A stretch of 64,000 nt of DNA. Origin: an uncultured Bacteroidales bacterium (GTDB taxonomy: Bacteria; Bacteroidota; Bacteroidia; Bacteroidales; WCHB1-69). Below the pieces are notes generated by a model. That model was not told the DNA's origin and searched no databases. It saw nothing but the letters and a program-made list of their open reading frames with translations. The translations under genes were made by a program, and so were the position numbers. Location of the stretch: the NCBI GenBank assembly GCA_905235135.1, contig CAJOKR010000004.1, forward strand, positions 25,027-89,026. Direction: 5' to 3'. Positions 37,373-40,571 of the stretch are shown here, piece by piece (the first letter of the stretch is position 1; the number at the start of each line of letters is the position of its first letter).

Positions 37373-38440
37373 ATGTTGTATGGTATAGACATATTCAGTG
37401 GCGCGGGCGGTCTCAGTTTGGGTGCTGAGATGGCTGGTGCAGCCATTATGTTTGCTGTCGAAAAGGACAAAAATGCAACAGAAACATACCGTTATAATCA
37501 CAAGAACACACCAATTATTTGTGGAGACATACATAACGTTGACCCATTGGAATACAGAAAGCCCATTGGAGCGAACGATCAACTGATTGTTTTTGGTGGT
37601 CCGCCGTGTCAAGGTTTTTCAACATCCAACACTGTGACACGCAATATGCAGAATCCAAACAACAGTTTGTTTGAGGAATTCGTGCGTTTTGTTGCCACTT
37701 TAAACCCTGATTGGTTCCTATTTGAGAATGTCGAAGGCTTTTATCGGTTTGAGAATGGATTGATTCGTGACAAGGTGAAGAAATGTTTTGAAGACTTGGG
37801 CTATACTGTAAATTATTCCATTGTGGTGGCCTCTGATTATGGTGTGCCGCAACACCGGAATCGTTTCATAATGGTTGGAAATAGAAATGGTATCTTATTC
37901 CAATTTCCCGAGAAACACAAAAAAAACTATACGGTCAAAGATGCTATTGCTGACCTCCCAGATTTATCTAATGGTCAAATGGATGATTCTTTACCGTATA
38001 AGTGTTCGGCCAAAGAAGCAGGTGAATATGCCCAGCTAATGCGCCACGGCTCTCGCACCTCCAAGCAGAACTACGTTTCCCGCAATGCCGATTATGTCAT
38101 TGAACGATACAAATACATTGGTCAAGGTCAGAATTGGCGAGCCATCCCCGAAGAATTGATGTCTAACTACAAAGACAAGAACCAATGTCACAGTGGTATT
38201 TATAAAAGATTGATAGCCGACAAGCCCTCTGTAGTTATATCCAATTACAGAAAAAACATGCTGATACATCCTTTTCAAGATAGAGGGTTGTCTGTTAGAG
38301 AAGCCGCAAGATTGCAAAGCTTTCCGGATAAGTTTGTTTTTAAAGGTAGTTTGATGCATATTCAACAACAGATAGGGAATGCTGTACCACCATTATTGGC
38401 AAAAGCGGTTTTTGATAAAATAATGGAATATGGAGAATGA
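37373..38440 (+). CDS. DNA (cytosine-5)-methyltransferase
   Basis: MLYGIDIFSGAGGLSLG (motif I), FGGPPCQGFS (IV), ENV (VI), QHRNRFIMVG (VIII), RLQSFPDKF (IX), GNAVPPLLA (X). The tracked ORF's N-terminal extension overlaps the 37036 gene and is not used. Confidence 0.9.
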   Translation: MLYGIDIFSGAGGLSLGAEMAGAAIMFAVEKDKNATETYRYNHKNTPIICGDIHNVDPLEYRKPIGANDQLIVFGGPPCQGFSTSNTVTRNMQNPNNSLFEEFVRFVATLNPDWFLFENVEGFYRFENGLIRDKVKKCFEDLGYTVNYSIVVASDYGVPQHRNRFIMVGNRNGILFQFPEKHKKNYTVKDAIADLPDLSNGQMDDSLPYKCSAKEAGEYAQLMRHGSRTSKQNYVSRNADYVIERYKYIGQGQNWRAIPEELMSNYKDKNQCHSGIYKRLIADKPSVVISNYRKNMLIHPFQDRGLSVREAARLQSFPDKFVFKGSLMHIQQQIGNAVPPLLAKAVFDKIMEYGE

Positions 38441-40571
38441 CAACCCTACTATATTGCATTTCAAGTTTGATGTCAGCACTTTTCGTTTGTTGGGAAGAGA
38501 GCTGATAACAGATCGTATCACGGCTTTATTTGAGCTTGTCAAAAACTGCTATGATGCTAATGCTGAAAATGTTCAATTGACTTTCGAAAATCTTAATCCT
38601 CTATGCCCTGAAAGTCGTATTATTATTGAAGATAACGGGCTAGGCATGTCATTTGAAGATATTCGAGACAAATGGATGGTCATCGGAACAAGTAGTAAAA
38701 GGAGAAATAGGACATCCCCATCCCCATACAATCGTATTGTTGCTGGTAAAAAAGGTGTGGGAAGATTTGCCGTGGACAAACTTGGCGGAAAACTCGTAAT
38801 GAAAACCAAGAAAAAAGGTTCTCCTGTTTGGCATTGTTTGGAAACAGATTGGACCAAATACGCAGAAGAAGAGAATCGGCAATTGGAGTTGGATTTTGAG
38901 AATTCCTCTAAAAAACAAAAACTATTTACTGACATTGACAATAAGTATTGGACAGAGCCTGCTGACGTTGGTGTTCAAGGTACAAGATTGGAAATTTCAA
39001 GTCTAAATGATATATGGCTTGAAAACGATGTTAGACGTGCATATAGAGAACTCTCTAAAATAGTTAAACCTTCATCAAATTCAAGATATCCGTTTAATAT
39101 TAGATTTATAGTTCCCGAGTATCTTGAATATCGTGATAAAATGGTCGAAAGCCTCGTATTGGCAAAGGCCACATTATCATATATGTTGAAATACAGATAT
39201 GATAAGGGTGAGCAAAAATATTACCAAGAATATCTCGAAGAAAATAAGGGTGAACTTGTTGTAAAAGAAAAGGAGGCAGAGGTTTTTGGCCCAATAGGAT
39301 TTACCCTTTATTATTACGATCAATCTGATAAAAAAGGTTTCTCTAAGGAAGAACGTGACGGTATTAAAGTTTACAGAGATAGTATTATTGCAACTCCATT
39401 TGCAGAATATAAATCCGATAGAAACGAACAAAAAGATTTATTTGGCATTGACAAACGCCGATGGTCTGGTTTTTTCGAAAAACTGAGTACAAGAGATATA
39501 ATTGGATGGGTAGATATCACGGACGAATTGAACCCAGAAATAAAGGATTCCACAAATCGTCAAGATTTCGTTGATAATAAAGAATGGAATGCTCTAAAAG
39601 GTTTTGTAATAAATCAAATCCATCAAATTGAGCTGTATTTAAAACACAAAAAAGATTCAAAGAAAAAGGAGAATGCTGAAAAGCTAAAGAATGCTGACAA
39701 AGATATTGATGACATCAAACAAAGAATCAGCAATATTAAAAATCAATCCTTATTGGTTTCTCCTGAAATAGATTCCGAACTTAATGAGATTGCCGGTAAG
39801 TTGGAAACAATCAAATCGACTGTTTCCGCCTCTTCCAAGGATTATGAGCAAATGGAAGCGGACAGACGGCAACAGGAAAACATTATGTTCAGTTTGGTCT
39901 CCCTTCAAGCTTACGCAGGACAAATCTCTCATATTCTCAGAATTTCCATTGGGATTATCAAGCGCTCTGCTGAATTTGTGGCCAAATGGATTCCGTTGCG
40001 ACAAAAGACAGAAAAATCCGTAATGCATGCCCGAAAGATTTTTGACGAGATGAACAATTTGTCTAAAGCTATGGATTTCATGTTAAGCTACGCAGAAGAT
40101 GATTCCACTTTTGAATTCTTTAGCGTTAAAGAAGCTGTTGCTGAATTGTTTGAAGATAGATACAAACTCTTATTTGAGGGAGAGACAATCCATACAGAGT
40201 ATGTTCTTGATGACGATTTCGAGTTATCATACAACAAAAAGGCTTTCCAAGATATGTTTGGCAACTTGATAGACAATTCTGTCAAAGCTTTACGAAATAC
40301 GAAGGACAAGCGAATTAGATGCACGGTTTTCAGAGAAAACGGGAACTTGGTGTTATTGTTTTCCGACAATGGGCCTGGGGTCCCTAATGAGATTCGTGAC
40401 AGAATTTTTGATGTGTTCTATACCACAACTGCCGATTTGGGAGGTGCCGGACTTGGGTTATATATTGTCCGCACCCGGTTGAATTCCATAAAAGGAACTA
40501 TTTCTCTCGAACCCAATGAGTTTAGACCCACTGGGGCGACTTTCAAAATAACGATACCATTAATACACTAA
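38430..40571 (+). CDS. soluble dual-GHKL protein: an N-terminal MORC/MutL/Hsp90-type ATPase, a coiled coil, and a C-terminal histidine kinase (H-box plus HATPase)
   Basis: N-terminal module: ELVKNCYDA (E35/N39/D42), EDNGLGM (D68-G70-G72), IGTSSK, GKKGVGRF. C-terminal module: QISHILR (His501), LIDNSVKAL (N616), SDNGPGVP, IFDVFYTT, GGAGLGLYIV. There is no TM segment. The ATG lies 11 nt inside the methyltransferase gene. Confidence 0.8.
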   Translation: MENDNPTILHFKFDVSTFRLLGRELITDRITALFELVKNCYDANAENVQLTFENLNPLCPESRIIIEDNGLGMSFEDIRDKWMVIGTSSKRRNRTSPSPYNRIVAGKKGVGRFAVDKLGGKLVMKTKKKGSPVWHCLETDWTKYAEEENRQLELDFENSSKKQKLFTDIDNKYWTEPADVGVQGTRLEISSLNDIWLENDVRRAYRELSKIVKPSSNSRYPFNIRFIVPEYLEYRDKMVESLVLAKATLSYMLKYRYDKGEQKYYQEYLEENKGELVVKEKEAEVFGPIGFTLYYYDQSDKKGFSKEERDGIKVYRDSIIATPFAEYKSDRNEQKDLFGIDKRRWSGFFEKLSTRDIIGWVDITDELNPEIKDSTNRQDFVDNKEWNALKGFVINQIHQIELYLKHKKDSKKKENAEKLKNADKDIDDIKQRISNIKNQSLLVSPEIDSELNEIAGKLETIKSTVSASSKDYEQMEADRRQQENIMFSLVSLQAYAGQISHILRISIGIIKRSAEFVAKWIPLRQKTEKSVMHARKIFDEMNNLSKAMDFMLSYAEDDSTFEFFSVKEAVAELFEDRYKLLFEGETIHTEYVLDDDFELSYNKKAFQDMFGNLIDNSVKALRNTKDKRIRCTVFRENGNLVLLFSDNGPGVPNEIRDRIFDVFYTTTADLGGAGLGLYIVRTRLNSIKGTISLEPNEFRPTGATFKITIPLIH

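Follow-up and report, generated by a model that had tools for sequence, protein, structure and literature searches.

A dual-GHKL histidine kinase in a predicted restriction-modification-like cassette that also encodes a DNA methylase, a receiver protein and a putative caspase-fold protease in an uncultured Bacteroidales bacterium

Soluble proteins that carry an N-terminal HATPase_c_3 module, a histidine hairpin and a C-terminal HATPase_c module were described by Bellieny-Rabelo, Pretorius & Moleleki 2021 (PMC8011034), whose purely computational study took as its starting point a gene of Pectobacterium 'with two HATPase domains (PF02518; PF13589)'. The predominant architecture in that family is HATPase_c_3 + HEF_HK + HATPase_c, its taxa include Bacteroides, Prevotella and Porphyromonas, a response-regulator-like gene is adjacent in 91.6%, C5 methylases lie upstream, and restriction-modification (R-M) genes are enriched nearby. 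An origin from the paraMORCs described by Iyer et al. 2008 (PMC2292703), which had themselves been proposed as components of R-M systems, was suggested for the family. Two-component signalling has also been tied to immunity, as Detocs, a His-Asp two-component system, is in itself an anti-phage system (Rousset et al. 2023, bioRxiv 10.1101/2023.01.24.525353), and receiver-fused Shedu nucleases adjoin histidine kinases (bioRxiv 10.1101/2023.08.10.552793). Here we describe a dual-GHKL kinase encoded in a 64,000-nucleotide (nt) stretch of DNA, hereafter the window, from an uncultured Bacteroidales bacterium (WCHB1-69; assembly GCA_905235135.1, contig CAJOKR010000004.1, positions 25,027-89,026, forward strand). 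The architecture alone has been known since 2021; new here is its placement in a tight operon with a methylase, a receiver and a caspase-like protease. This four-gene cassette looks like a horizontally mobile, R-M-like signalling module, for which we infer a role in defence.

All four genes lie on the forward strand. The first encodes a C5 cytosine DNA methyltransferase of 355 amino acids (aa; 37373-38440), recognized by Pfam DNA_methylase (E=1.3e-69), by PADLOC MTase_II (4.7e-124) and by the motifs GIDIFSGAGG and GGPPCQGFS. It is followed by the kinase gene (38430-40571), the gene of a response-regulator-like protein of 204 aa (40576-41190) and the gene of a 213-aa protein (41187-41828), a putative cysteine protease of the caspase fold and the probable effector of the cassette. 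The last of these had been overlooked in an earlier note on this DNA, which had centred on the kinase and suggested that it feeds a phosphorelay and possibly clamps DNA. A phosphorelay and a link to DNA or its methylation both find support in the gene context. The gene of the receiver protein, which has invariant acidic residues D17 and D63, starts 4 nt downstream of the kinase gene and makes a phosphorelay plausible, and the methylase gene overlaps the kinase start by 11 nt, with a methylase directly upstream of the kinase in most related loci. The receiver and 213-aa genes overlap by 4 nt, and a gap of 154 nt follows.

This arrangement is conserved well beyond the window. The junctions are alike, and mostly overlaps, in 20 other loci of the subfamily with the caspase-like gene. 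The same four genes, in equal order and packing, are found around kinases 80-83% identical to that of the window in Bacteroidales and Salinivirgaceae, at unrelated chromosomal sites and with different content downstream of the fourth gene at each locus. The four-gene set also occurs in Flavobacteriia, Chitinophagales, Spirochaetaceae, Thiomicrorhabdus, Firmicutes, Acidobacteriota and Nitrosopumilus. The window cassette sits inside an island of low guanine-plus-cytosine (GC) content at ~35.5-46.7 kb (37-44% GC versus ~52% in the flanks), bounded by a ThrE exporter gene and a PEMT gene on one side and by an aldose epimerase gene on the other.

The kinase open reading frame (ORF) lies exactly where the earlier note had placed it, begins with ATG and encodes a soluble histidine kinase of 713 aa with a paraMORC-type GHKL ATPase module as its predicted input. 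The claim that it combines two different GHKL modules, neither of them degenerate, holds as well, since Pfam recognizes HATPase_c_3 (PF13589) in residues 31-154 with 77.8 bits (cutoff 25, E=1e-21) and HATPase_c (PF02518) in residues 604-711 with 88.2 bits (cutoff 26.4, E=6.5e-25), both well outside what chance would give, with all ATP-binding motifs intact. The N-terminal module reads E35-x3-N39-x2-D42-A, D68-N-G70-L-G72 and G106-K-K108-G109-V-G111-R112, and the C-terminal module has an N-box (N-L-I-D-N, 612-616), a G1 box (D646-N-G648-P-G), an F-box (F660-D-V-F-Y) and a G2 box (G672-A-G674-L-G676-L). Conservation was read from two alignments, one of 114 relatives and one of 69, with identities of 22-63%. 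E35, N39, D42, D68, G70, G72, G106, K108, G109, G111 and R112 are invariant in both; conservation in both is 90% or higher for H501, N612, N616, G672, G674 and G676, and G648 reaches 90% in the 114-sequence alignment only. Judged by its motifs I, II and III, the N-terminal module is of the GHKL type, and both ATPase modules are apparently functional.

An AlphaFold2 model built on the 69 diverse relatives, with a mean predicted local distance difference test (pLDDT) score of 86.6, divides the kinase into four parts. The N-terminal GHKL (Bergerat) ATPase domain, of MutL/MORC type and with Glu35 as the catalytic residue, comprises residues 1-215 (38430-39074). It is followed by a beta-rich, transducer-like middle domain (residues 216-380, 39075-39569) delimited by secondary structure in the model, Foldseek and conservation, in which D336 and R377 are near-invariant and R377 is a candidate gamma-phosphate-contacting residue; relatives align over residues ~9-470. 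Three very long helices (384-439, 445-520 and 524-557) then form a coiled-coil stalk and a dimerization and His-phosphotransfer hairpin (residues 384-557, 39579-40100), ahead of a catalytic ATP-binding domain with the N, G1, F and G2 boxes (residues 560-713, 40107-40568). The earlier note had seen ~350 residues of unknown and coiled-coil sequence between the two modules. On the evidence of the model and the Foldseek alignments, this stretch is better described as the rest of a MORC/Hsp90-like two-domain ATPase module, the stalk and the His hairpin: residues ~155-215 finish the GHKL domain, ~216-380 make up the middle domain and 384-557 are helices.

The C-terminal part of the protein is predicted to be a class I (HisKA-type) transmitter, by its His-bearing hairpin and its N, G1, F and G2 boxes. 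Its last ~234 columns in the model align with HK853, YycG and other kinases (Foldseek against the PDB, E~2e-14), and in sequence searches the C-terminal ~220 residues match many histidine-kinase models of NCBIfam and PDB histidine kinases to E=8e-12. The predicted phospho-acceptor, His501 (codon 39930-39932), lies on the helix 445-520 in the motif ISHILRISI and corresponds residue for residue to the phospho-acceptor His of Thermotoga HK853 (ISHELRTPL). Pfam HisKA has no match in the window kinase and matches 2 of the 69 relatives.

The second ATPase sits in the sensor position, as the earlier note had proposed, with no PAS, GAF, HAMP or transmembrane input domain found in the kinase by Pfam or in the model. 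The GHKL identity of the N-terminal region, given by HATPase_c_3, is borne out by structural matches that make it MORC/MutL/Hsp90-like. Over ~430-510 columns, the N-terminal part of the model resembles MORC2 with DNA (9cdh/9cdj, 3e-14), SMCHD1 (6mw7), MORC3 (6o1e) and Hsp90/TRAP1/GRP94 (Foldseek). The MORC2, SMCHD1 and MORC3 alignments (~470 columns) have E~1e-13 to 3e-14 and template-modelling (TM) scores of 0.43-0.53 on the target, a likeness at fold level only, and the middle domain is a candidate for the S5 type. At the level of sequence, the only PDB match of the N-terminus is a weak one to PMS1, a MutL homologue (E=0.006), while residues 11-193 match the N-terminus of BbrUII/HgiDII (NF050001) in NCBIfam with 64.8 bits against a cutoff of 550. 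PADLOC returns the N-termini of two REase_II models (PDLC03419/03485, 3.3e-10) and a weak MzaB match, and nothing else. The appearance of Hsp90, TRAP1 and GRP94 among the structural matches could also point to a chaperone-like sensor that detects phage or misfolded protein instead of DNA, the methylase being linked merely through a shared island; a like idea has been raised for GHKL-fused Shedu nucleases (bioRxiv 10.1101/2023.08.10.552793). We regard such a sensor as very unlikely, given that the best structural matches are the DNA-associated MORC2, SMCHD1 and MORC3, that the sequence likeness is to MutL/PMS1 and to GHKL-bearing restriction enzymes, and that the methylase overlaps the kinase gene here and holds the adjacent slot in most loci across phyla.

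Two groups of DNA-directed GHKL proteins are close to this N-terminal module. The paraMORC and MORC proteins of R-M systems (PMC2292703) share with the window kinase the intact GHKL motifs followed, as far as the model shows, by a middle domain, operons with methylases (of cytosine or adenine), Vsr, HNH and restriction-fold nucleases, and lateral mobility; linkage in operons to DNA methylases and restriction-type nucleases, a trait of MORC and paraMORC types, is present around the window kinase and its relatives. They differ in their C-terminal part, which in paraMORC1-5 is a nuclease, TIR or family-specific domain, or else helicases are the partners; no histidine-kinase fusion is described there. 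The GHKL type II restriction enzymes of the BbrUII/HgiDII family (NF050001, PADLOC REase_II) are homologous over the N-terminal ~180 residues and also have a methylase beside the gene, whereas the window kinase falls far below the family cutoff and continues as a histidine-kinase transmitter instead of a nuclease or specificity region. A gene annotated 'ParaMORC3' in Escherichia phage PhiR44_1 (PV340563.1, 8710-9078) matches the kinase over residues 3-130 only.

The dual-GHKL kinase architecture is common and already known (PMC8011034), in contrast to the rarity that the earlier note had implied. With kinase residues 1-480 alone as the query, the number of matching cluster representatives is 5694 at E<=1e-3, falling to 3124 at E<=1e-10 and to 189 at E<=1e-30. 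Among the best 150 matches, 113 are at least 630 aa long and at least 94 have two DxGxG motifs more than 350 residues apart; HATPase_c_3 and HATPase_c are both present in 69 of 69 relatives scanned with Pfam. A pattern scan found a kinase relative in at least 586 species-representative genomes, from most bacterial phyla and from archaea (Nitrosopumilus, Bathyarchaeia and a Methanobacteriota metagenome-assembled genome (MAG)), and 118 plasmids, of which 66 are conjugative, carry relatives. The Nitrosopumilus MAG (L026, 6001-10460) has the kinase, the receiver, the caspase-like protein and a C5 methylase, and full-length dual-GHKL kinases are also encoded in the Bathyarchaeia (L036) and Methanobacteriota (L072) loci. 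The earlier note had allowed that the architecture might prove a common, already characterized class with a non-defence role: it is common and has been described, while experimental characterization and a non-defence role were not found in the literature searched.

The window cassette shares with the systems of PMC8011034 the kinase architecture, the downstream receiver-like gene, the upstream C5 methylase, the enrichment of R-M genes and the proposed paraMORC origin. It has the published architecture and yet stands outside the two profiles that go with it, because the profile scans were negative. HEF_HK (PF19191) gave no match at E<=10 over window residues ~455-600 and none in the 79 kinase relatives scanned (69 plus 10 dual-GHKL proteins), results that carry the proviso that the presence of PF19191 in the profile library is unconfirmed, whereas PF19192 is present. 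Response_reg_2 (PF19192) likewise had no match in the window receiver at E<=10 and matched 1 of 88 receiver-slot proteins, this one being within a set of 78. Membership of the window proteins in either HEF_HK or Response_reg_2 was accordingly rejected. The window receiver matches the canonical Response_reg and not Response_reg_2, and the residue after the phospho-acceptor His is Ile, as against the Glu or Asp stressed in that paper. The caspase-fold partner was not identified there, several neighbouring orthologous groups being given as unknown.

The receiver protein consists of a receiver domain (residues ~10-135) and a conserved C-terminal domain of ~65 residues (~136-204). It carries the PF00072 profile, the acidic pocket and the phospho-acceptor Asp of response regulators, as judged from its sequence. 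A profile of 18 orthologues matches solved receiver domains at 3e-12; beside the invariant D17 and D63, Thr or Ser is kept at position 93. The C-terminal domain has conserved residues E143, W145, G182 and L192, and its ~65 residues match nothing in Pfam or in a PDB profile search. This small conserved domain leaves room for a regulatory two-component system, in which the kinase senses a cytoplasmic cue (such as the ATP or nucleoside triphosphate pool, or the state of DNA), the receiver's C-terminal domain binds DNA and tunes the expression of neighbouring methylase and R-M genes in the manner of an elaborate C protein, and the 213-aa protein is accessory. Such a role was the speculation offered in the Discussion of PMC8011034, the sole paper found on the family, and R-M systems do adjoin the cassette in the window and in many related loci. 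It is nevertheless unlikely in our view. Pfam and the PDB profile search both fail to show a DNA-binding domain, helix-turn-helix or otherwise, in the receiver, the receiver and 213-aa genes overlap by 4 nt and co-vary across phyla, and the neighbouring R-M systems vary by locus while the four-gene cassette stays constant. Furthermore, the fourth slot of related operons holds enzymes of defence-effector type (HNH, caspase-like, Vsr, glycosylase) and not regulators.

The 213-aa product of the fourth gene has no significant sequence match in Pfam, NCBIfam, PADLOC or the PDB; Pfam Peptidase_C25, at 14.2 bits (E=0.025), stays below its threshold of 23. Its AlphaFold2 model is confident (pLDDT 97.2, predicted TM score 0.93), and the best fold matches in the PDB are the CHAT protease of activated SAVED-CHAT (8tl0, 2.5e-6), gingipain R/RgpB (4ief, 1cvr), legumain, C11 proteases and caspases-3, -4 and -7 (Foldseek). 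H77, G78 and C110 are invariant in 66 homologues (53-97% identity), and the His-Gly and Cys positions are kept in 21 of 21 distant homologues. In the model, H77-G78 directly follows the strand 70-75 and C110 directly follows the strand 103-108. The predicted structure is a clan CD-type fold with His-Gly and Cys at the ends of core strands, and the protein is a putative protease. It shares this fold with SAVED-CHAT, gingipains, legumain, C11 proteases and caspases (Foldseek 2.5e-6 to 1e-3, TM 0.5-0.64 on the query) and differs from them as a minimal single domain without SAVED, TPR or pro-domain, at 7-16% identity to solved proteases, and in its proposed activator, which would be a phosphorylated receiver and not a cyclic nucleotide or proteolytic maturation. 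The literature searched contains nothing relevant that links a paraMORC or GHKL kinase to a caspase-like protease or to anti-phage function; the caspase-fold fourth gene was previously unrecognized and appears new against that literature.

Related loci show how the positions of the cassette are filled. Counts were drawn from the best 80 genome loci, which are those nearest to the window kinase. Directly after the kinase, 53 of 78 loci have a receiver-like gene by iterative search, 32 of which reach Pfam Response_reg. Directly before it, at least 40 of 72 loci have a DNA methylase (C5 in 34, N6_Mtase in 6, Eco57I-type in 4). The fourth slot holds a caspase-like homologue in 21 of 72 loci from several phyla (71 genome loci and the window, all with this slot filled, plus the marine contig L007), an HNH nuclease in 8, a family without assignment in 7 and a C5 methylase in 6, with scattered Vsr, HhH-GPD glycosylase and DUF559 or REase-like genes. 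Every locus examined that has a readable fourth slot and a kinase at least 39% identical has the caspase-like gene, which is also found beside kinases ~26-29% identical in Nitrosopumilus, Fusibacter, Brevibacillus, Clostridium, Pyrinomonadaceae and Dyadobacter. Of the 21 loci of this subfamily, 16 have a C5 methylase gene directly upstream and 2 others have one directly downstream. The HNH operons keep the same sizes as in the window (receiver ~210-236 aa, effector ~197-227 aa), and on the marine contig L007, N4/N6 methylases are followed by kinase, receiver and HNH genes. Hence the methylase-kinase-receiver linkage is conserved across phyla and the fourth slot is swappable between caspase-like, HNH and other proteins. 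As the methylase link spans methylation chemistries and the last gene behaves as an exchangeable effector, the cassette shows a pattern known from defence systems, Detocs among them. The exchange of effector between caspase-like and HNH operons appears new against the literature searched.

Further variants were observed among these loci. The seven-member family, without a Pfam match and ~230-273 aa long, may be another effector class on the same kinase chassis; it follows a long receiver-slot protein (350-390 aa), and in 5 of its 7 loci a gene for ~610-645 aa comes next. The long receiver-slot proteins were considered as Shedu fusions and are not recognizable as such, because PADLOC gives only PDC-M60B (3 loci) and an unrelated neighbouring DrmA for the receiver-slot proteins of related loci; one kinase relative adjoins a DISARM DrmA gene (L085, 3537-7418). 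A conjugative Campylobacter plasmid carries a kinase, a 340-aa response regulator and dcm, and a Klebsiella plasmid carries an N6 methylase followed by a disrupted kinase.

The mixture of methylases also bears on the possibility of a DNA-repair accessory, in which the MutL-like module signals T:G mismatches left by deamination of 5-methylcytosine from the linked C5 methylase, comparable to very-short-patch repair. Vsr genes near some family members, reported in PMC8011034 as well, and the MutL-like motifs of the N-terminal module would suit that function, but the family is also linked to N6 and N4 methylases, which make no deamination mismatch, the effector is a protease without an obvious repair role, and the cassette is patchy and mobile instead of belonging to a core gene set. 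A repair role is therefore highly improbable.

In its predicted logic, the cassette comes close to Detocs, where a kinase passes phosphate to a receiver and so acts on a cell-stopping effector that is swappable between operons. The parts are different: Detocs has a TPR sensor (DtcA), a buffer receiver (DtcB), a receiver-fused PNP ATP nucleosidase (DtcC) and no methylase, while the window cassette has another sensor, no second receiver and a separate effector. The Detocs models of PADLOC have no match among the nine window proteins scanned. By analogy, the window cassette would work most like Detocs and the R-M systems that contain paraMORCs, as a strict member of neither.

Taken together, we tentatively favour an R-M-like sensor cassette with a His-Asp phosphorelay to a swappable effector, which in the window would be a protease. 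In such a system, the methylase would mark the host's own DNA, and the N-terminal MORC-like ATPase module would engage unmarked DNA, probably together with the methylase, as Res does with Mod in type III systems. If the methylase recruits the MORC-like module, as it may, one conserved sensor could serve methylases of different specificity. ATP-driven dimerization or clamping of the module on unmarked DNA would be transmitted through the coiled-coil stalk to the His hairpin, allowing the C-terminal kinase domain to phosphorylate His501, from which the phosphoryl group would pass to the receiver at Asp63. Once phosphorylated, the receiver would use its conserved C-terminal domain to switch on the caspase-like protease, and cleavage of host or invader proteins would stop the infection or kill the cell. 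In the sister operons, an HNH nuclease could be the effector switched on, with a more classical restriction outcome. DNA clamping, suggested in the earlier note, and the sensing of methylated versus unmethylated DNA by the kinase belong to the conjectural steps of this scheme. The full version, in which the MORC-like ATPase reads the DNA-methylation state, alone or with its cognate methylase, and signals non-self through the phosphorelay to a minimal caspase-like protease, as R-M-derived immunity by proteolysis, is possible but rather doubtful. Within the favoured scheme, the logic of a phosphorelay to an effector is more likely than the specific trigger.

Several observations count against the favoured scheme. 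No DNA-binding or sequence-reading element was identified in the kinase, and its likeness to MORC2 with DNA is one of fold (TM ~0.33-0.48). The receiver barely passes the Pfam Response_reg (PF00072) cutoff of 30.2 bits, with a score of 30.3, and some of its orthologues lack the conserved Lys (K116). The caspase fold resembles other alpha/beta folds, so that the Spo0A receiver is also a weak match of the 213-aa protein (rank 44) and the peptidase assignment leans on the invariant His/Cys pair. No substrate of the protease is encoded within the operon, and neither the receiver nor the 213-aa protein matches a model of a known defence system in PADLOC. The frequencies of the slot classes are biased, as the 80 loci sampled are the closest relatives of the window kinase, and no experimental work on the dual-GHKL kinase family was found in the literature searched.

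The same parts could also be assembled into an addiction or guard module. The kinase would then monitor the methylase or the methylation of the host chromosome and not invading DNA. If the cassette were lost, or the methylase blocked (a phage anti-restriction protein could do so), unmethylated sites would arise, the phosphorelay would fire and the protease would kill the cell, as post-segregational killing or abortive infection. The overlap of the methylase and kinase genes, a methylase linkage that holds whatever the methylation chemistry, and the mobility of the cassette on plasmids and in islands are all in keeping with this; so is the nature of the effector, which is a protease and not a DNA cutter, so that self and foreign DNA could not be told apart at the effector step. 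The sister operons with HNH nucleases, on the other hand, resemble conventional restriction more. Nothing computational separates the guard module from the sensor cassette that we favour, and the gap in evidence is equal for both; we hold the guard module to be quite unlikely.

The surroundings of the cassette contain further genes of interest. The longest ORF of the methylase runs from 37103, and the probable ATG start is at 37373 because a conserved 92-aa ORF occupies 37036-37314 (+) and overlaps the 5' extension; the methylase orthologues of four related loci (L003-L006) are likewise 355 aa long. Only L001 and L002 have a homologue of the 92-aa ORF, 40% identical and equally placed, with conserved ends MS[ST]IQ..IH and LEPDGDKI..ANSWLFL. 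A 205-aa ORF at 36345-36962 (+) has no family match and an 82%-identical homologue upstream of the cassette in L009. Both ORFs were rejected as core components, their homologues being confined to these loci. The island also carries a DinD-like gene at 35536-36297 (+; NF008573 328 bits, PADLOC candidate PDC-S13 6.8e-107) and, 154 nt past the cassette, a complete second R-M system (41983-45170, +) of a Sau3AI/MutH-like endonuclease (41983-43443, +; PADLOC REase_II 1.6e-100, NF040973 2.2e-49) and a 575-aa C5 methylase (43443-45170, +) with a C-terminal extension of ~165 residues past the methylase domain. This Sau3AI-like pair was rejected as a part of the cassette because the genes after the fourth gene differ at each related locus. 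The last gene of the island encodes a 412-aa protein (45457-46695, +) with a C-terminal SEC-C metal-binding motif and a weak match to PADLOC PDC-S12.

Elsewhere in the window, a low-GC patch at 50-52 kb (42%) coincides with part of 49142-51134 (+), where a 256-aa ORF with a weak match to the immunity protein Imm11 comes after a 402-aa ORF that Pfam does not recognize; the two may be a toxin-immunity pair. Low-GC patches at 2001-4000 (35%) and 18001-20000 (43%), against flanks of ~50-56%, suggest other acquired segments. A tRNA-Ala gene lies at 5734-5808 (-), a WG-repeat protein is encoded at 30638-31627 (+), and the gene of an ATPase_2/AAA_14-like ATPase (32259-33455, +) closely precedes the housekeeping genes for ThrE and PEMT.

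The dual-GHKL kinase family is large and consistently tied to methylases, and the alternation of caspase-like and HNH proteins in its operons gives a concrete hypothesis of input, relay and output. If the proposed mechanism is true, the cassette would be a second and mechanistically distinct case, after Detocs, of a two-component phosphorelay as an immune system, the first such system with a methylation-linked MORC-like sensor, and the first case of a receiver domain controlling a caspase-like protease. It would also bring together, in one bacterial and archaeal signalling operon, a MORC ATPase with a DNA methylase and a caspase-fold protease, three modules found as well in the chromatin silencing and cell death of eukaryotes. 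These findings bear on how prokaryotic MORC-type ATPases work.

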